From a virus (Duplodnaviria > Heunggongvirae > Uroviricota > Caudoviricetes), in the IMG/VR virus record IMGVR_UViG_2778261121_000001, positions 1 through 55,913 of that record: a DNA stretch of 55,913 nt; one strand, 5' to 3'. The stretch's first letter is position 1; each line of letters opens with the position of its first letter. Below are positions 1,586-50,722 of this stretch, in pieces. Made by a program: the position numbers and the translations under genes. Under the pieces are notes generated by a model that worked only from the letters and a program-made list of their open reading frames with translations, had not been told where the DNA came from and ran no database searches.

Positions 1586-3619
1586 TTACTTAACTTGGTG
1601 GCCTGGTTTAGCACCAGCATCCGGGCTTAACAGGAAGATATCTTTCCCACCGGGGCCAGCAGCCATCACCATACCTTCGGAGATACCGAAGCGCATTTTA
1701 CGCGGAGCCAGGTTAGCCACCATAATGGTGTGACGACCAATCAGTGCCTGTGGGTCTGGATAAGCAGAACGGATGCCTGAGAAGACATTGCGTTTTTCAC
1801 CACCTAGATCCAGCGTCAGACGCAGCAGTTTGTCAGAACCTTCAACAAACTCTGCGTTTTCAATCAGCGCCACGCGCAGGTCAACTTTGGCGAAGTCGTC
1901 AAAGGTGATAGTTTCCTGAATCGGGTCGTCAGCCAGTGGGCCAGTTACCGGTGCGGCTGTGGCTTTCACTTCTTCTTTGGATGCTTCCACCAGTGCTTCA
2001 ACCTGCTTCATATCGATGCGGTTATACAGTGCCTTGAACGGATTCACTTTATGGCCCAGCAACGGTTGCTGGATGCCATCCCAGGTCAGTTCTGTATTCA
2101 GGAATGCTTCTGCACGTTCAGTCAGTTTCGGCAGTACCGGCTTCAGGTACGTCATCAGCACGCGGAACAGGTTAATGCCCATAGAGCAAATCGCCTGCAG
2201 ATCGGCATCGCGTCCTTCCTGCTTCGCCACCACCCACGGAGCCTGTTCATCGACATAGCGGTTAGCCAGGTCAGCCAATGCCATGATTTCACGGATAGCT
2301 TTACCAAATTCACGGCTTTCCCATGCTTCGCCAATCACTTCAGCGGCATCAGTAAAGGTTTTGTACAGTTGCGGGTCAGCCAGTTCGCTTGCCAGCACGC
2401 CGTCAAAACGCTTGTTGATAAAGCCTGCATTACGGGAGGCCAGGTTAACCACTTTGTTCACGATATCGGCATTCACGCGCTGAACGAAATCCTCCAGGTT
2501 GAGATCGATATCATCAATGCGCGAAGAGAGTTTCGCAGTGTAGTAGTAACGCAGGCTGTCAGCGTCAAAATGATTCAGCCAGGTGCTGGCTTTAATAAAG
2601 GTGCCGCGAGACTTGGACATCTTCGCGCCGTTCACCGTCACATAGCCGTGAACAAACAGGTTGGTCGGCTTGCGGAAGTTGCTGCCTTCCAGCATGGCAG
2701 GCCAGAACAGGCTGTGGAAGTAAACAATATCTTTACCGATGAAGTGGTACAGCTCGGCGGTGGAGTCTTTCTTCCAGTATTCATCGAAGCTGGTGGTATC
2801 GCCGCGCTTGTCGCACAGATTCTTGAAGGAACCCATGTAGCCAATCGGCGCGTCCAGCCAGACGTAGAAATATTTGCCCGGCGCGTTCGGAATTTCAAAA
2901 CCGAAGTAAGGCGCATCGCGGGAGATATCCCACTGTTGCAGGCCGGATTCAAACCACTCCTGCATTTTATTTGCCACCTGCTCCTGCAACGCACCGCTGC
3001 GGGTCCATGCCTGCAACATTTCGCTGAAAGAAGGCAGATCAAAGAAGAAGTGTTCGGAATCACGCATTACCGGGGTAGCGCCAGAAACCACCGATTTCGG
3101 CTCGATCAATTCAGTCGGGCTATATGTTGCGCCGCAGACTTCACAGTTATCGCCGTATTGATCTGGCGCTTTACATTTCGGGCAGGTGCCTTTTACAAAA
3201 CGATCCGGCAGGAACATGCCTTTTTCCGGGTCGTACAACTGAGAGATAGTGCGGTTTTTAATAAAACCGTTCTCTTTCAGGCGAGTATAGATAAGCTCAG
3301 ACAACTGACGGTTCTCTTCGCTGTGCGTCGAGTGATAGTTGTCATAGCTGATGTTAAAGCCTGCGAAATCAGTCTGGTGTTCCTGACTCATTTCGCCAAT
3401 CATCTGCTCCGGTGTGATACCAAGCTGCTGTGCTTTCAGCATGATCGGCGTACCGTGGGCATCGTCGGCACAGATGAAATTAACCTCGTGGCCGCGCATT
3501 CGCTGGTAACGAACCCAGACATCAGCCTGGATGTGCTCCAGCATATGGCCGAGGTGGATTGAGCCGTTAGCGTACGGCAGCGCGCACGTCACCAGAATTT
3601 TCTTCGCGACTTGGGTCAT
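1586..3619 (-). CDS. metG: methionine--tRNA ligase
   Basis: Translation from [29 protein letters not shown] to the C-terminus matches E. coli MetG almost residue for residue; start set at the MTQ methionine rather than the longer track ORF. Confidence 0.95.
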
Positions 3620-3776
3620 AGTAGGCATTACTTCTTTGTAGTGAAAAGGGGCTTGATAGTAACAAAATGGCCTTATGTCTGCCATGTGATAACAGCATTT
3701 CTCATAAATGATTAAATGTCGTAGCTGGAGTACACTACAAGGCGACAATTGCGCAAATTAAAATAAAGGAGACGGG

Positions 3777-4877
3777 ATGAGCGAGTCCAAATCGCCGGAT
3801 GCCCTGAGAGCAATGGTAGCCGGTACGCTGGCTAATTTTCAGCACCCAACCCTGAAACACAACCTGACTACGCTTAAAGCGTTACACCATGTTGCGTTGA
3901 TGGATGACACACTGCATGTCGAACTAATCATGCCTTTCGTGTGGAATAAGCCTTTTGAAGACCTGAAAGAGCAATGTAGTGGTGATCTGCTCCGTATCAC
4001 TGGCGCAAAGGCTATTGACTGGAAGCTGTCGTACAACATTGCCACGCTTAAGCGCGTCAAAAACCAACCAGGCATTAATGGCGTTAAGAATATTATCGCC
4101 GTAAGCTCAGGCAAGGGCGGTGTAGGCAAATCGTCCACAGCAGTAAACTTGGCACTGGCGTTGGCTGCTGAAGGTGCGAAAGTTGGTATTTTGGATGCCG
4201 ATATCTACGGGCCATCAATTCCAACCATGCTGGGCGCGGAAAACCAACGTCCAACCTCACCAGACGGTACTCACATGGCACCTATTATGTCTCATGGCCT
4301 GGCAACCAATTCTATTGGTTATCTGGTCACCGACGACAATGCGATGGTGTGGCGTGGACCGATGGCTAGCAAGGCGCTGATGCAGATGTTGCAGGAAACA
4401 CTGTGGCCTGATCTGGACTATCTCGTTCTCGATATGCCGCCGGGCACTGGTGATATTCAATTGACGCTGGCGCAGAACATTCCTGTAACGGGTGCTGTGG
4501 TGGTAACTACGCCGCAAGATATCGCGCTGATCGATGCGAAGAAAGGCATTGTGATGTTCGAAAAAGTCGAAGTGCCGGTACTGGGTATCGTCGAAAACAT
4601 GAGTGTGCATATTTGCAGTAACTGCGGTCATCACGAGCCAATTTTCGGCACCGGTGGCGCAGAGAAACTGGCCGAGAAATACAACACGCAGTTGTTAGGC
4701 CAAATGCCACTTCATATCTCACTTCGTGAAGATCTGGATAACGGAACACCAACCGTTATTAGTCGTCCAGATAGCGAATTTACGGCTATTTATCGTGACC
4801 TCGCAGATCGCGTTGCTGCCCAAATGTATTGGCAAGGTGAAGTAATACCTGGCGAAATCGCATTCCGCGCAGTGTGA
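3777..4877 (+). CDS. apbC: iron-sulfur cluster carrier ATPase ApbC/Mrp
   Basis: Walker A SSGKGGVGKSS plus CxxC near the C-terminus; strong similarity to E. coli Mrp; divergent from metG as in enterobacterial chromosomes. Confidence 0.93.
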   Translation: MSESKSPDALRAMVAGTLANFQHPTLKHNLTTLKALHHVALMDDTLHVELIMPFVWNKPFEDLKEQCSGDLLRITGAKAIDWKLSYNIATLKRVKNQPGINGVKNIIAVSSGKGGVGKSSTAVNLALALAAEGAKVGILDADIYGPSIPTMLGAENQRPTSPDGTHMAPIMSHGLATNSIGYLVTDDNAMVWRGPMASKALMQMLQETLWPDLDYLVLDMPPGTGDIQLTLAQNIPVTGAVVVTTPQDIALIDAKKGIVMFEKVEVPVLGIVENMSVHICSNCGHHEPIFGTGGAEKLAEKYNTQLLGQMPLHISLREDLDNGTPTVISRPDSEFTAIYRDLADRVAAQMYWQGEVIPGEIAFRAV

Positions 4878-18996: not shown

Positions 18997-19590
18997 CTAA
19001 GCAGCCTTCTTTGATGGTCTTTTTTTTCTGACCACATTCGCAGGATCATACCCTCCCAGACTTTTCATGACGTCCAAAGGGATCTTGCTTATAGAGTGCC
19101 CAGCGTCCTGACAGAATCCTCGAAAAACAACGAGCATACTGCCACCGGGGTTGATGTTTACTTCTACCTGACCAAAATTGACGTCAGGCTCGACAAACGC
19201 TACGCGGCCACCAGACAGAATAATCGTCTCATTCGCATACTCTGTTGCACGCTCATACCACTTTGTATCGAGGGATTGAGGAATTAGCATCACTGTTGTA
19301 ACTCCGCGAGCCTGCTCACGAATAGCCGCATCAATCCAGGGGGAGATTTTGGAGTAGGGTGGATTGAGGAAGGCAATTGTACCTGGCTGTCCCCATTCAG
19401 ATTTCAAAGCATCACGCTCAATGCCTATGAAATTAGGCAGCTTTGCGTTGTCCTTGTTGCAGGCAACGTCAACATCAAATGTCACTCCAAGATAACGTTG
19501 AATGGCAGAAAACAGCCAATCAGGTGTTCTCCAGAGGTCACGAAGAGAGTTGTCGCGCTTTCGCTGTTTGATTTTTTCGGCTGCAATCAT
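18997..19590 (-). CDS. phage Dam-type DNA N6-adenine methyltransferase
   Basis: 197 aa with NPPY motif; palindromic operator-like motif 10 nt upstream of the start. Confidence 0.75.
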   Translation of the reverse strand: MIAAEKIKQRKRDNSLRDLWRTPDWLFSAIQRYLGVTFDVDVACNKDNAKLPNFIGIERDALKSEWGQPGTIAFLNPPYSKISPWIDAAIREQARGVTTVMLIPQSLDTKWYERATEYANETIILSGGRVAFVEPDVNFGQVEVNINPGGSMLVVFRGFCQDAGHSISKIPLDVMKSLGGYDPANVVRKKRPSKKAA

Positions 19591-19654
19591 CTTCTTTCTC
19601 GATAGGTAAGTGATTACCTATTTTTGCATTTGATTTTATGTCTGGCAATCAAAT

Positions 19655-33972: not shown

Positions 33973-34617
33973 TTACAGCGCGTCAGTGGGCTTTTTACGC
34001 GCTGCATTTATGCTTATGACGCCAGCTTTAGGACGTGGATCGACAAGGTTCAGTTCTTCTTCGCTATGGTATTCAAGGTCGAACTCACGTTTTACATGTC
34101 TGATGTAGATTGCAGTGAGCAGGCTATCTTTGGTCAGGAAGTGTCCGTAGGATTTGCGGATCACTTCTTCAACCTTCTCGATTTTCTCACCACCCATGCA
34201 GAGGTGATTAAACCGGCTGTGTTTCCGCAACATCTCGTCAACTGGGCCTGAGTAAACCTTGTCTACTTTCCCAAAACGAATGATTTTTCCTGTATCTGCG
34301 GATACAAGGCAAATCAGTTTGTCTGGTGATAAACGATCTCGCCACGTTACTCCTGAACGGAGTGTGTTGAAGTAGGGCGCATCCAATCCGATGATCGGTT
34401 TACGAAATGCGAGCAATGGAACGTACCTGATACAACTATTCAAATGAAAGTTCACACCAGCCTTATCAAGTTTAATTCTGGTTTCGTAGATCGGGCACTT
34501 CGCCGCTATACCGCAGATATCACAAAGTAACTTCTGCTTATTCAGGTTGGAATTTGATTCGATAGTGTAGGAGCCGTCCTCAAGACGACGAACCCAGCGC
34601 GTGCGTTTTAGATCCAT
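33973..34617 (-). CDS. hypothetical protein (214 aa) adjacent to the origin
   Basis: ORF in track. Confidence 0.45.
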   Translation of the reverse strand: MDLKRTRWVRRLEDGSYTIESNSNLNKQKLLCDICGIAAKCPIYETRIKLDKAGVNFHLNSCIRYVPLLAFRKPIIGLDAPYFNTLRSGVTWRDRLSPDKLICLVSADTGKIIRFGKVDKVYSGPVDEMLRKHSRFNHLCMGGEKIEKVEEVIRKSYGHFLTKDSLLTAIYIRHVKREFDLEYHSEEELNLVDPRPKAGVISINAARKKPTDAL

Positions 34618-34718
34618 AATCGTTTTTTCAGTAGTTATTGGCCGATGCTACGATAACTCATTAGGCATACCTTAATCTGCATTTGCCTGTTTTACTTATC
34701 CCAGTTATCCACTGGATA

Positions 34719-34776
34719 GATCCAAATAAGAGATCCCAAGTAAGATCAAATAGAAGATCCAAAGAGATCCCCGATC
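34719..34776. promoter_or_regulatory. cluster of six GATC sites
   Basis: GATC at 34719, 34732, 34744, 34756, 34766 and 34773 within 58 bp. Confidence 0.5.
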
Positions 34777-34817
34777 GCCTCTAGCCGTTGCGGTTACTGG
34801 TCTGAAAGGGTGTTGCC

Positions 34818-34920
34818 ATCCACTATGGAGAGCAAAGAAACCTCTGTAGAGAGCTGAATAACCGCTATGAAGAGTAAAACAACCACTCTGGAGAGCTGTA
34901 TATATCCACTGTAGAGAGTA
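34818..34920. repeat. iteron array A (5 copies, ~21-bp period)
   Basis: Repeats of (A/T)NCCACTRTRGAGAGC at 34818, 34839, 34860, 34881 and 34905. Confidence 0.7.
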
Positions 34921-35077
34921 GAGCACATTGTCTTTTATGGATAACTTAATGACTTAATTCTTCATTAACATACTGATATACATAGATATATTTTAAACTC
35001 TACTCTTAGTCATGATTCTTATGTCCTTAAATATCCACAGAAGAGTAGAGTTACCTGTTCTTGAAATCCTCTGATTT

Positions 35078-35086
35078 TTATCCACA
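35078..35086. promoter_or_regulatory. DnaA box (TTATCCACA) in the AT-rich spacer between iteron arrays
   Basis: Perfect consensus 9-mer with AT-rich DNA and GATC sites on either side. Confidence 0.5.
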
Positions 35087-35198
35087 GGCCCGATCCAGTA
35101 ATTCAGATCACAAAGAGAACCAAAGAGACCCATAAAGACCCAATAAGATCCCCGCCCACCTCAAACCGTTGCGCCATCTGCCTTCAGACATGATCGAT

Positions 35199-35320
35199 AT
35201 CCACTATAGAGAGCGAATAATCCACTATAGGGAGCAAAGCAACCACTATAGAGAGGAGAAAAACCACTATAGACGGTAGGATAACCGCTGTGATGAGTGC
35301 TACTATCCACTGTAATCAGC
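35199..35320. repeat. iteron array B (6 copies, ~21-bp period)
   Basis: ATCCACTATAGAGAGC-type repeats at 35199, 35220, 35241, 35263, 35284 and 35305, directly upstream of repA. Confidence 0.7.
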
Positions 35321-35360
35321 AAAGGCCACCAAAGCCGTCGAATAACAAGAGACATTTGGA

Positions 35361-36416
35361 ATGAGCGAAAACGGCAATAAAAACATAGCGATCGTTGAAG
35401 CATTTTCAGAAACAGATAAAAAGACAGGCGAAGTTGTTACGTTGGTTCCTAACACTAATAACACTGTTCAGCCTGTTGCTTTGATGCGTCTGGGCCTCTT
35501 CGTTCCGACGCTGAAATCGACATCCAGAGGAAGAAAGGGGCAAATGGTCTCTATGGATGCCTCTGCTGAACTCAAACAGCTGTCTCTGGCAAAAGCCGAA
35601 GGGTACGAAGACATAAGGATCTCTGGCCTTCGGCTTGATATGGATAACGACTTTAAAACGTGGGTGGGAATAATCCACGCGTTTGCCAAACACAAGGTCG
35701 TTGGCGATACTGTCACGTTGCCGTTCGTTGAGTTTGTAAGGCTGTGTGGCATTCCGACCGCCAGGTCATCAGCGAAGTTACGCAAACGCCTGGACAGTTC
35801 GCTAAGCCGTATTGCCACAAATACCATCTCGTTCCGTAGCAAAGGCTCTGATGAGTTTTACGTAACGCATCTTGTGCAAACGGCAAAATATAGTGTCAAG
35901 CACGATACGGTCGAACTGAAAGCAGATCCCAAGATTTTCGAACTCTACCAGTTCGACAAAAAGGTTCTTCTGCAACTCCGGGCTATAAACGAACTCTCAA
36001 GAAAAGAATCCGCTCAGGCGCTTTATACTTTTATTGAAAGTTTGCCGCCTGATCCGGCACCAATATCACTAGCCCGTTTACGCGCCAGACTTAATCTGAC
36101 AAGTCGCACTATTACTCAGAATGCGACGGTAAGAAAGGCTATGGAACAGCTGCGAGAGATAGGATATCTCGATTACACGGAAGTTAAGCGCGGAAACTCG
36201 GTCTACTTCGTCATCCACTATAGGCGGCCAAAGTTACGCCAGGCACAAATATCAACAAAAATCGATAATGATGAGACGGAATATAGCCTCCCAGATGAGA
36301 ATCAAGATGACATTATCGACGTTGTGCCTGACGAAAAAGAAGGCAAAATGGTCATGTTGAGTAAAGAAGAACTGGCGCTTCTCGAAGAGTTGCGCAAGGC
36401 AAAGACTCGCAAATAG
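35361..36416 (+). CDS. repA: plasmid replication initiator (RepA-like, iteron-binding)
   Basis: 351-aa plus-strand ORF flanked by iteron arrays on both sides; family assigned from this P1-type arrangement, not from a sequence motif. Confidence 0.7.
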
Positions 36417-36417
36417 C

Positions 36418-36900
36418 CCAACCACTGTAGTTAGTAGTAAGGCTCACTATCCACTGTAGTGAGCCTTACTTATATCTGTAATTCGCTATCCACTATAGTG
36501 AGTATCGTTATCTGTTGATAACCACTGTAGGCAGTAGAATGCAAATACTGAATCAAATGTTAGTGATCACTAACACTGATGAAACAAGGGCTGCGAGGTT
36601 AGTGGTCACTGGGTATCTTGGAAAATTTACTGTCTATAGTGGTTGTTGTCGCCCTCATCTTTGAGCGTATCCACTGTGGCGAGTGGATATCCACTGAAAA
36701 CAGCAAAGGCTTACTCACCATAGTGGATACCCGCTGGACATCTCACTCCAATACTCACCATAGTGGTTGTTTGATGCGAATGAAAGGCTGTCTACTCGCT
36801 ACAGTGGTTAGCAGATATGTAGGAAGAGAGGACTGCAGACCACAGTGGATAATGAGCTGATACGAATGCGGTGAGCTGGCTACTCACCGCAGTGGTTGGT
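36418..36900. repeat. downstream iteron array (about 11 copies, both orientations)
   Basis: CCACTGTAG/CCACTATAG cores and their reverse complements between the repA stop and the next gene. Confidence 0.7.
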
Positions 36901-36904
36901 GCTA

Positions 36905-37117
36905 TTAGTGTATTTTCTTTAACAGACCCCAAAGTGTTCCGGCTTTTGTAGTCAGTTTTCCTGTTTCTGGATCGTACATACGCCATTCACGCCGCTGGTG
37001 GACGATATACCCATCTTCACGCTCCAGACGCTCAAGAACGCCAGGCTGCTTGAAACCCTTAGCACGCCAGTATCCGCTTGTTTTCTCGATTTCCAGACCT
37101 GCTAGTGTTAATGCCAT
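36905..37117 (-). CDS. hypothetical protein (70 aa)
   Basis: ORF; TAATG overlap with the upstream gene. Confidence 0.4.
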   Translation of the reverse strand: MALTLAGLEIEKTSGYWRAKGFKQPGVLERLEREDGYIVHQRREWRMYDPETGKLTTKAGTLWGLLKKIH

Positions 37118-37452
37118 TATCCAACCTCCTTGCAGTCATCGAAAAGGTAGCTTTGCTGAGAAGCGTGAACGCCATAGAAGCCCTTGTATTTGTTGTATAC
37201 GAAGTGGTCTTCTCCGACGCCGGTTAATTTGCCATTACGGTTTGTGAGATATGGGGATGACAATACTCGATCGTCACGCACAACATAGAACTGGTCGCCG
37301 CTGTCTACGACCATCGCTCCATATGGTGCTTTTATGACGTCGGTAAGAGCGCCATTCTTAACGTCGGCTACAGACATTTCACACTGATAAACAGTGGTGT
37401 CGGCCACAACGATCGAAGAAAGGAACAACAGCGCGAATGGGATGGCCTTCAT
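37117..37452 (-). CDS. secreted protein (111 aa, cleavable signal peptide, two Cys)
   Basis: N-terminal MKAIPFALLFLSSIVVA signal-like segment. Confidence 0.5.
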   Translation of the reverse strand: MKAIPFALLFLSSIVVADTTVYQCEMSVADVKNGALTDVIKAPYGAMVVDSGDQFYVVRDDRVLSSPYLTNRNGKLTGVGEDHFVYNKYKGFYGVHASQQSYLFDDCKEVG

Positions 37453-37943: not shown

Positions 37944-37998
37944 GTGTTTTTCCTTTTGTGGTTAGTGTTTACTTATTTTGTTAGTTATGAATAGGCGA

Positions 37999-50627: not shown

Positions 50628-50722
50628 GCGTTTTTCCTTTGTTCTCTAATGAGCGTTCAACTTCTTATATAAATATACCATTAACTATCGTAAGTGGTTA
50701 CTTATCATTAAGGCTGTTTTAT

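Follow-up and report, generated by a model that had tools for sequence, protein, structure and literature searches.

The window, that is, the whole 55,913-nucleotide stretch of viral DNA that was analysed, carries between 33973 and 36900 what is very probably (probability about 0.85) an iteron replicon of the P1/RepFIB family that serves the theta-mode plasmid maintenance of a pLF82/Cyrano-type phage-plasmid in the SSU5 supergroup. Its anatomy, homology, conservation and distribution could be read directly by sequence analysis. Deposited, annotated and typed records of the element and of its RepA already exist, and as a discovery the replicon is ordinary. Its one less familiar feature is that the origin is doubled in tandem, a trait common to a whole branch of related enterobacterial plasmids: the upstream module is a 381-bp tandem duplicate of a whole P1-oriR-like unit, composed of a DnaA box, GATC repeats, a GC spacer and iterons. 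The region is organized as follows.

33973-34617, minus strand: unrelated ORF, an ASCH-domain protein by the annotation of Cyrano
34696-34713, plus strand: distal left DnaA boxes, TTATCCCAG (2 mismatches) and TTATCCACT (1 mismatch)
34719-34776, plus strand: distal GATC repeats, six sites in AGATCC-type repeats, 7-13 bp apart
34777-34817, plus strand: distal GC-rich spacer, holding CCGTTGCG at 34785-34792
34818-34918, plus strand: distal iteron array, 5 copies (34818, 34839, 34860, 34881, 34904)
34936-34944, minus strand: distal right-hand DnaA box, TTATCCATA on the minus strand
34945-35077, no strand: inter-module spacer, AT-rich in this element and its lineage only
35078-35086, plus strand: proximal DnaA box, a perfect TTATCCACA
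35090-35158, plus strand: proximal GATC repeats, degenerate, with GATC left at 35092, 35106 and 35147
35159-35198, plus strand: proximal GC-rich spacer, with CCGTTGCG at 35166-35173 and a GATC at 35192
35199-35319, plus strand: proximal iteron array, 6 copies (35199, 35220, 35241, 35262, 35283, 35305)
35361-36416, plus strand: repA, encoding a 351-aa initiator of the Rep_3 family, called RepA in Cyrano, SSU5, pMT1 and pHCM2
36213-36227, plus strand: iteron-like site within repA, ATCCACTATAGGCGG, encoding IHYRR, a twelfth beyond the 11 downstream
36420-36534, plus strand: downstream array, part one, 4 forward iterons
36559-36609, plus strand: two conserved non-iteron boxes, GTTAGTGATCACTAAC and GTTAGTGGTCAC, 39 bp apart
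36630-36900, no strand: downstream array, part two, 1 forward and 6 reverse iterons

All the elements pointed out in the sequence-only reading are present, far above chance. The iteron motif AWCCNCTNTRRNNRG has 21 matches in the 56-kb window, all within 34818-36809, where 0.15 would be expected, and this number was reached in none of 100 shuffles. The two upstream arrays of five and six copies were both located by motif and spacing (21-23 bp), and the CCGTTGCG box described ahead of each (repeat family D9) is found at the two positions listed. The AT-rich stretch with a DnaA box between the arrays is also real: 34920-35020 is 68-80% A+T, and the perfect box at 35078 follows. The six-site GATC cluster (Poisson ~9e-7 per 70-bp window for six sites in 58 bp) is the densest in the window; it was, however, taken for a separate upstream feature and in fact belongs to the distal origin module, of which it forms the left half. 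The extent given to the replicon needs a similar correction: the replicon lies inside 33973-36900, but a start at 33973 takes in the unrelated minus-strand ORF, for which a Pfam search returned no match.

The left half of the distal module can be aligned with P1 oriR DNA. Its left DnaA boxes correspond to the tandem boxes of P1 oriR, the DnaA binding site in K02380, and its GATC sites to the Dam sites annotated in the same record. All six of these sites (6/6) are kept in SSU5, pMT1 and pHCM2, and by analogy they are presumed to be the Dam/SeqA target and the opening region. The GC-rich spacer is the counterpart of the GCCGCGCC spacer in P1, SJ46 and PhiR41_1. DnaA boxes with one mismatch are found at 34705, 34936 (minus strand) and 35031, and the predicted boxes at 34705, 34936 (minus strand) and 35078 flank the origin in a P1-like layout; the P1 origin has DnaA boxes at both flanks (PMC4980987). 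The TGGATAAC core of the right-hand box is invariant across a five-sequence alignment, and two related loci (L045 and L031) have perfect reverse DnaA boxes at the place equivalent to 34936.

The inter-module spacer is the least conserved portion of the upstream region. It contains a promoter-like TTAACA-16-TATATT at 34965-34992, which is not conserved. The AT-rich stretch 34925-35077 was considered as an unwinding element, and this reading was rejected because SSU5, pMT1 and pHCM2 share neither its AT-richness nor its sequence. In the proximal module the central repeats read AGAACC, AGACCC and AGACCC, and Rahnella shows the same central degeneration. The proximal iteron array occupies the position of P1 incC, which bears the annotated repA -35 and -10 signals, and is presumed to be the repA promoter/operator. 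A sigma-70 scan of these iterons gave no convincing conserved repA promoter; the combined promoter and terminator scan returned 8 promoter-like sites, where 4.0 +/- 2.2 were expected, none of them convincing or conserved for repA. The arrangement is not that of a single origin module directly upstream bearing the repA promoter, since there are two modules and the promoter was not located convincingly.

The RepA-like initiator claimed for this locus contains both domains of the Rep_3 class, defined here by Pfam PF01051 and PF21205. The N-terminal WH1 domain is matched by Rep3_N (E 1.3e-10, 42.2 bits, cut-off 22.4), and the C-terminal WH2 domain by Rep3_C (E 1.3e-4), a marginal match because its 22.6 bits stand against a cut-off of 21.1, but backed by the full-length alignment with P1 RepA. 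The proposed comparison with P1 RepA bears out the similarity to plasmid initiators: identity to P1/P7 RepA is 47.5% over residues 40-293 (E 1e-71), and ~44.5% to RepFIB-type RepA. No solved structure in the PDB was matched by the RepA sequence at E <= 0.01, and NCBIfam gave no match. RepA of this element is ~58 C-terminal residues longer than that of P1, and its gene starts with ATG, in contrast to the CTG of classical RepFIB (PMC11983097).

Downstream of repA, where about 11 iterons in both orientations had been reported, exactly 11 are counted at one mismatch or less in 36420-36900, 5 forward and 6 reverse. They would provide an incA-like copy-number control. This number is the lowest among the relatives compared (12-14 in pHCM2, pMT1 and SSU5, 19 in pE16EC1016-4). 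An Rfam scan of 34500-37200 at E <= 1 returned zero RNA families; therefore, an antisense-RNA control element is unsupported.

The phage-plasmid context proposed for the replicon is borne out by the whole window, which is collinear with Cyrano/pLF82, CMS-2020a and PhiR41_1 and, more distantly, with SSU5. The window flanks are 96-98% identical to the first three and ~80% to SSU5, and the collinearity of the SSU5-type phage and replication genes places the element in the supergroup. Cyrano (pLF82 of the AIEC E. coli LF82, OV696614) shares 99.5% nucleotide identity over 33973-36900 and 100% of RepA; it is a plasmid with 5.5 copies per chromosome, whose virions are ciprofloxacin-inducible (PMC9928086). 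SSU5, S. Typhi pHCM2 and Y. pestis pMT1, at ~82-84% identity, possess the same dual upstream modules and share the gene neighbours, an ASCH-like and a cra-like ORF, neither of which has a match in NCBIfam. In total, 339 plasmid records match the replicon, pMT1 and pHCM2 among them. IncFIB is the replicon type in the records inspected, and the sole type in 3/4; this type, a MOB-suite typing in PLSDB, is assigned here via matching plasmids (a 99.3% identical one, pMT1 and pHCM2). The replicon and its context are therefore already known, given the near-identity of Cyrano, the ~83% identity of SSU5, pHCM2 and pMT1 and the IncFIB type of the matching plasmids.

The oriR/incC-repA-incA organization suggested for the locus holds, RepA being homologous to P1 RepA and the half containing DnaA boxes, GATC repeats and GC spacer aligning with P1 oriR. 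The same parts follow in the same order: DnaA boxes, GATC repeats, GC spacer, five iterons, repA and a downstream array in two orientations. However, P1 has one module and this element two in tandem, 381 bp apart, and the iterons differ, AWCCACTRTAG in P1 and GATGTGTGCTGGAGGG here. In RepFIB (F, P307 and pO157), for which the P1-like phage SJ46 stands here, an upstream origin and downstream control iterons flank repA as well, but there is only one upstream module, with TTGACTATACGCGA iterons. For FIB replicons, the downstream block is the stronger incompatibility and control determinant (PMC11983097).

By analogy with these systems, RepA monomers would bind the iterons at 21-bp spacing and, together with host DnaA bound at both flanks, would open the adjoining GATC-repeat region. 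Dam methylation is presumably required for initiation, and SeqA on hemimethylated DNA would block immediate re-initiation. RepA on the iterons adjacent to repA would repress its own promoter. Copy number would be limited by the 11 downstream iterons, as by incA in P1, through titration of RepA and through pairing ("handcuffing") with the iterons of the origin. For P1 and FIB replicons, control by handcuffing and by autoregulation is the accepted view (PMC11983097). We infer all these binding and regulatory steps, as well as the way in which the two modules share out their tasks, considered below.

The duplicated array had been called unusual. This is true in comparison with P1 and RepFIB, but the trait is not peculiar to this element, since SSU5, pMT1, pHCM2 and others share it. 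Among 79 surveyed loci of RepA relatives, 36 have two modules, 14 a distal origin with only iterons by repA, and 29 one module. The duplication, scored in distant relatives by ungapped self-match, is kept in SSU5, pMT1, pHCM2 and 35/78 assessable species-representative loci. In the dual-module loci, the distal copy has 5-6 GATC sites and the proximal copy fewer in 35/36 (means 5.5 vs. 3.4). Between orthologues, which are related, non-independent sequences, the host-factor half is 72.1% identical in the distal and 64.9% in the proximal module, the distal being more conserved in 121/136 pairs; the iteron halves show the opposite trend (69.4% vs. 71.6%). In the 14 further relatives, repA is preceded at a distance of 425-850 bp by a GATC-rich origin cluster. 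Four of these loci were read by eye: beside repA they retain only iterons, and decay of the proximal DnaA/GATC half is partial or complete.

Since the distal GATC sites are kept and this copy is better conserved, the somewhat favoured interpretation makes the distal copy (34696-34944) the true origin, with the proximal copy (35078-35319) mainly providing the repA operator iterons and an extra pairing partner. The proximal module may still fire as an origin, because a perfect DnaA box and 3-4 GATC sites remain. If the two jobs are divided in this way, origin iterons and rep operator are separate sites, as in F RepFIA (ori2/repE) and pSC101. In those replicons, Rep dimers bind an operator made of inverted half-iterons. 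Here, on the contrary, the operator would be a duplicated direct-repeat array that is still origin-like.

More tentatively, and with considerable doubt, the whole branch may have duplicated the origin module and split the two jobs of P1, the distal copy serving as the Dam- and DnaA-dependent origin and the proximal one becoming a pure operator, an architecture that would be undescribed. The branch meant comprises pLF82/Cyrano, SSU5, pHCM2, pMT1 and plasmids of Rahnella, Erwinia, Pantoea, Buttiauxella and Cedecea. If this is true, living intermediates extend from second origins that are almost complete to arrays of iterons alone.

It is rather unlikely that both modules are active tandem RepA-dependent origins, redundant or condition-dependent. 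For example, the GATC-rich distal module could fire on fully Dam-methylated DNA and the GATC-poor proximal one under low methylation or strong SeqA sequestration. Each module indeed has a DnaA box (a perfect consensus in the proximal one), AGAYCC-type repeats, a GC spacer and five or six iterons, and the element encodes its own Dam-family methyltransferase, at 18997-19590. Furthermore, the conservation of the proximal AGACCC variants all the way from E. coli to Rahnella is suggestive of selection and not of decay. Against two active origins stand the 14 related loci without detectable duplication, the four loci in which the proximal host-factor half has decayed in part or in full beside an intact distal origin, and the faster evolution of this half in the proximal than in the distal module.

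Even less probable is the reverse assignment, in which the proximal module would be the only origin and the distal one an extra negative-control or incompatibility array, comparable to the extra iteron groups of RK2 or to P1 incA. It would agree with P1, RepFIB (SJ46), PhiR41_1 and the 29 surveyed loci, where the single module lies directly upstream of repA, at ~-236. However, iterons alone would suffice for a control array, and the distal module is not only the better conserved but, in all loci with two modules or with a distal one only, retains a complete complement of DnaA boxes together with 5-7 GATC sites. Finally, that the repA region is a relic, the prophage being kept by the other replication system of the element (Pol III alpha, SSB, recombination genes), is highly improbable: Cyrano does have many replication genes besides repA, but against a relic stand an intact repA, iterons that are far from random and are kept across genera, IncFIB as the sole replicon type given for pA17EC0026-1, pMT1 and pHCM2, and the presence of relatives on large plasmids as well, some of them complete records of 230-670 kb.

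The replicon maintains a widespread family of enterobacterial phage-plasmids, including the plague plasmid pMT1 and S. Typhi pHCM2, and SSU5-like elements have been reported with resistance genes (bioRxiv 10.1101/2025.09.12.675607). Knowledge of the firing module, and of the iterons that determine copy number and incompatibility, is relevant to curing designs like the FIB ones (PMC11983097). It also bears on the reading of IncFIB typing and on interchangeable replicon cassettes in otherwise near-identical phage backbones.

The two conserved non-iteron boxes of the downstream region follow the four forward iterons that open the array and precede the rest, most of which are reverse. It was considered that the paired GTTAGTGRTYAC boxes might be inverted half-iterons forming sites for a RepA dimer, but this reading is weakened by PhiR41_1, whose iterons are unrelated and which has the same box. 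The boxes also resemble Tus Ter sites, at 9/11 core positions, a likeness too weak to claim. Unlike in P1, the control array is not followed by parAB. The Cyrano "MinD" ORF was considered as a partition ParA and rejected, as it is a NUBPL/Mrp-type ATPase.

The replicon is organized around a RepA-like initiator, as the sequence-only reading had proposed, with the Rep3_N and Rep3_C domains both present in ORF 35361-36416. The degenerate iteron motif AWCCNCTNTRRNNRG has 21 matches in the 55.9-kb window, all within 34818-36809, for an expectation of 0.15 in dinucleotide shuffles (maximum in any shuffle, 2). The features are as follows.

33973-34617, minus strand: ORF, ASCH-domain protein according to the annotation of Escherichia phage Cyrano
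34818-34918: distal iteron array, five copies, 21-23 bp spacing
35199-35319: proximal iteron array, six copies, 21-23 bp spacing
35361-36416, plus strand: repA ORF, 351 aa; Pfam Rep3_N (WH1, E 1.3e-10) and Rep3_C (WH2, E 1.3e-4)
36420-36900: eleven downstream iterons, five forward and six reverse
36559-36574: non-iteron box GTTAGTGATCACTAAC, a perfect 16-bp palindrome
36598-36609: non-iteron box GTTAGTGGTCAC, 39 bp from GTTAGTGATCACTAAC

Both predicted upstream arrays (five and six copies), the two copies of the box CCGTTGCG ahead of them and the iterons in both orientations downstream (about 11 had been announced) were recovered. The AT-rich interval is there as well, as are a perfect DnaA box at 35078 and three further boxes with one mismatch each. 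The six-site GATC cluster (34719-34776) is the densest in the window. The start of the feature, placed at 33973, has to be moved, as it takes in an unrelated minus-strand ORF; this ORF, for which Pfam gave no match, belongs to the phage backbone, outside the replicon. A sigma-70 scan located no convincing repA promoter in the region. The best sigma-70-like site (TTAACA-16-TATATT, 34965-34992, plus strand, 10/12) falls within the AT-rich stretch that separates the two modules and is oriented toward repA; it is lineage-specific, not being conserved in SSU5, pMT1 and pHCM2.

Cyrano (OV696614), in which the ORF bears the annotation RepA, matches the replicon region at 99.5% identity, and Salmonella phage SSU5 matches it at 82%. 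Cyrano is the plasmid pLF82 of adherent-invasive E. coli LF82, an SSU5-like phage-plasmid with 5.5 copies per chromosome and ciprofloxacin-induced virions (PMC9928086). Outside the replicon, the window aligns collinearly with Cyrano, CMS-2020a and PhiR41_1 at 96-98% identity and has the gene content usual in SSU5-type elements (Pol III alpha, RecA-like, SbcCD-like, ribonucleotide reductase, integrase, repressor). This bears out the phage-plasmid reading, which has been published before. The plasmid collection contains 339 matching records, among them S. Typhi pHCM2 and Y. pestis pMT1 (~83% identity). All four plasmid records inspected are of IncFIB type, which in three is the sole type, on a non-mobilizable plasmid. 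As existing records cover the replicon, the RepA annotation, the IncFIB typing and the phage-plasmid carrier, the finding in its original form is already known; a modest interest remains in the conserved duplication of the origin and its apparent division of labour. An Escherichia marmotae plasmid of 166 kb (NZ_CP146383.1) carries 34640-36900 at 100% identity (positions 96438-98698). Members of this phage-plasmid family usually measure 105-115 kb, so this plasmid may have gained a large insertion or have formed as a cointegrate.

Over residues 40-293, RepA and P1/P7 RepA share 47.5% identity (E 1e-71); with the RepFIB-type RepA of P1-like phages the identity is ~44.5%. The DNA left of each iteron array is homologous to P1 oriR, with P1 ACTTATCCACATTATCCACTGGATAGATCCAAT corresponding to ACTTATCCCAGTTATCCACTGGATAGATCCAAAT in the window, followed in both by AGATCC-type repeats and a GC-rich spacer. 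In the P1 record, the annotated DnaA binding site and Dam methylation sites precede incC, repA and incA, and with a homologous RepA and oriR the proposed P1-type oriR/incC–repA–incA layout holds. Given this homology to annotated P1 elements, what was called an upstream "array" is in each case a complete oriR-like module, made up of a DnaA box, GATC repeats, the GC spacer with its CCGTTGCG box, and iterons. The iterons vary between replicon types, as expected from initiator specificity, and the homologous P1 and RepFIB replicons presumably work in the same mode. However, the element lacks the single origin-plus-operator module of that family, and the parAB genes found beside the P1 replicon are not adjacent to this one. 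Cyrano's annotation calls ORF 3777-4877 (plus strand) a "septum site-determining protein MinD"; its match to PF10609 (E 2e-102) identifies it as an iron-sulfur P-loop ATPase of the NUBPL/Mrp type rather than a partition ParA.

The alignment with P1/P7 RepA stops at residue 293 and leaves out the C-terminal extension. Residues 294-351 (window 36240-36413) form an acidic linker and a C-terminal helix, and this region has a weak, sub-threshold match to T4_y05I_C (E 0.005). Within repA, an iteron-like site ATCCACTATAGGCGG (36213-36227) codes for the conserved peptide IHYRR. About 40 relatives have this peptide; in 19 of them an arginine codon is AGR, which keeps the iteron match or nearly so, and the others have CGN codons, which abolish it. 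In some lineages this may be an intragenic RepA site.

The two upstream modules (34696-34944, distal; 35078-35319, proximal) match at 81 of 120 ungapped positions at an offset of 381 bp. On the same self-match score, the single-module controls (P1, SJ46 for RepFIB, and PhiR41_1) reach 50-53. Duplication and spacing are kept in SSU5, pMT1, pHCM2 and one further E. coli plasmid; a 230-kb Rahnella plasmid, with repA DNA of only 72% identity, has the duplication too. For a wider survey, 80 species-representative loci with RepA relatives at 62-91% identity were fetched; 78 had enough upstream sequence, and with the window the 1.1 kb upstream of repA was scored in 79 sequences. Two modules at an offset of 280-400 bp were found in 36, from genera including Yersinia, Kluyvera, Buttiauxella, Rahnella, Erwinia, Pantoea and Cedecea. 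In another 14, the self-match score detects no duplication, and the GATC-rich cluster lies 425-850 bp upstream of repA. Four of these, inspected by eye, have a complete distal origin and iterons alone adjoining repA, the proximal DnaA/GATC half having decayed partly or wholly. A single P1-like module at ~-236 occurs in 29, mostly large Pantoea contigs or plasmids with a shorter RepA; most single-module Pantoea matches stop at RepA residue 292-317, short of the C-terminal helix. The doubled array, flagged as unusual, does depart from the textbook prototypes, yet within this branch it is the norm. The literature searched contains no description of the dual-module architecture, the likeliest primary papers lying outside its scope, and novelty is not claimed.

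The modules differ in what they retain. Five to six GATC sites are kept in the distal module, and the proximal one has fewer in 35 of the 36 dual-module loci (means of 5.5 and 3.4); its central repeats read AGAACC, AGACCC and AGACCC in the window, a pattern shared by Rahnella. Orthologous halves were compared in 17 diverse dual-module loci (136 pairs). The host-factor half, containing the DnaA box and GATC repeats, is 72.1% identical in distal and 64.9% in proximal modules, and better conserved distally in 121 of the 136 pairs, although survey and pair counts alike come from related, non-independent sequences. The iteron halves show the opposite trend (69.4% vs. 71.6%). DnaA boxes bound the distal module on both sides (34705 and, on the minus strand, 34936), as they do the P1 origin (PMC4980987), and the distal-only relatives seen by eye indicate a lineage able to lose the proximal host-factor half, not the distal one. 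On these grounds the distal module is read as the origin proper. The proximal module would be a duplicate retained mainly for its iterons, which would serve as repA operator and perhaps also as an additional pairing partner; this division of labour is given a probability of roughly 55%. The proximal module still has the perfect DnaA box and several GATC sites, which would suit a second active origin, an unlikely reading given the weaker conservation of that half.

The eleven downstream iterons are the counterpart of P1 incA and of the RepFIB E-K iterons, the stronger negative-control determinant there, thought to act by handcuffing (PMC11983097). Their number is 12 in pHCM2 and the Rahnella plasmid, 13 in pMT1, 14 in SSU5 and 19 in pE16EC1016-4, so that the window has the shortest array among its close relatives; such variation is of the kind that would be expected to tune copy number. 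In pE16EC1016-4 (3268-4045 of that locus, vs. window 36414-36906), the array includes a run of tandem ~41-bp units with one reverse iteron each. The boxes GTTAGTGATCACTAAC and GTTAGTGGTCAC separate the first four forward iterons from the remaining, mostly reverse, ones. Both occur in all close relatives (SSU5, pMT1 and pHCM2 among them), in Rahnella plasmids and also in PhiR41_1; since the iterons of the latter are unrelated, the factor binding these boxes may not be RepA.

In PhiR41_1 and CMS-2020a, the backbone is 89-90% identical to the window up to 34806 and 96-97% from 36905 onward. Between these points (window 34807-36904), they have another RepA (48.8% identity), other iterons and a single module. 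On the left, the junction coincides with the edge of the first iteron, where the conserved host-factor half gives way to the iteron array. Iterons, repA and control array, the parts that make up the specificity cassette, have been swapped relative to these two elements.

A further gene of the window (18997-19590, minus strand) codes for a 197-aa DNA N6-adenine methyltransferase of the phage type (Pfam Dam PF05869, E 5.9e-38), which the Cyrano annotation also lists as an adenine methyltransferase. If GATC-specific, this enzyme could allow the element to methylate the GATC cluster of its origin without relying on the host. A palindrome, ATAGGTAAGTGATTACCTAT (19602-19621), lies 12-31 bp upstream of the start of this gene, and similar words occur elsewhere in the window (GTAAGTGGTTAC and GTTAGTGTTTAC; positions 50690-50701 and 37961-37972). 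With one mismatch allowed, the pattern GTTAGTGRTYAC is found 8 times for 0.58 expected, and may be the operator of some regulator.
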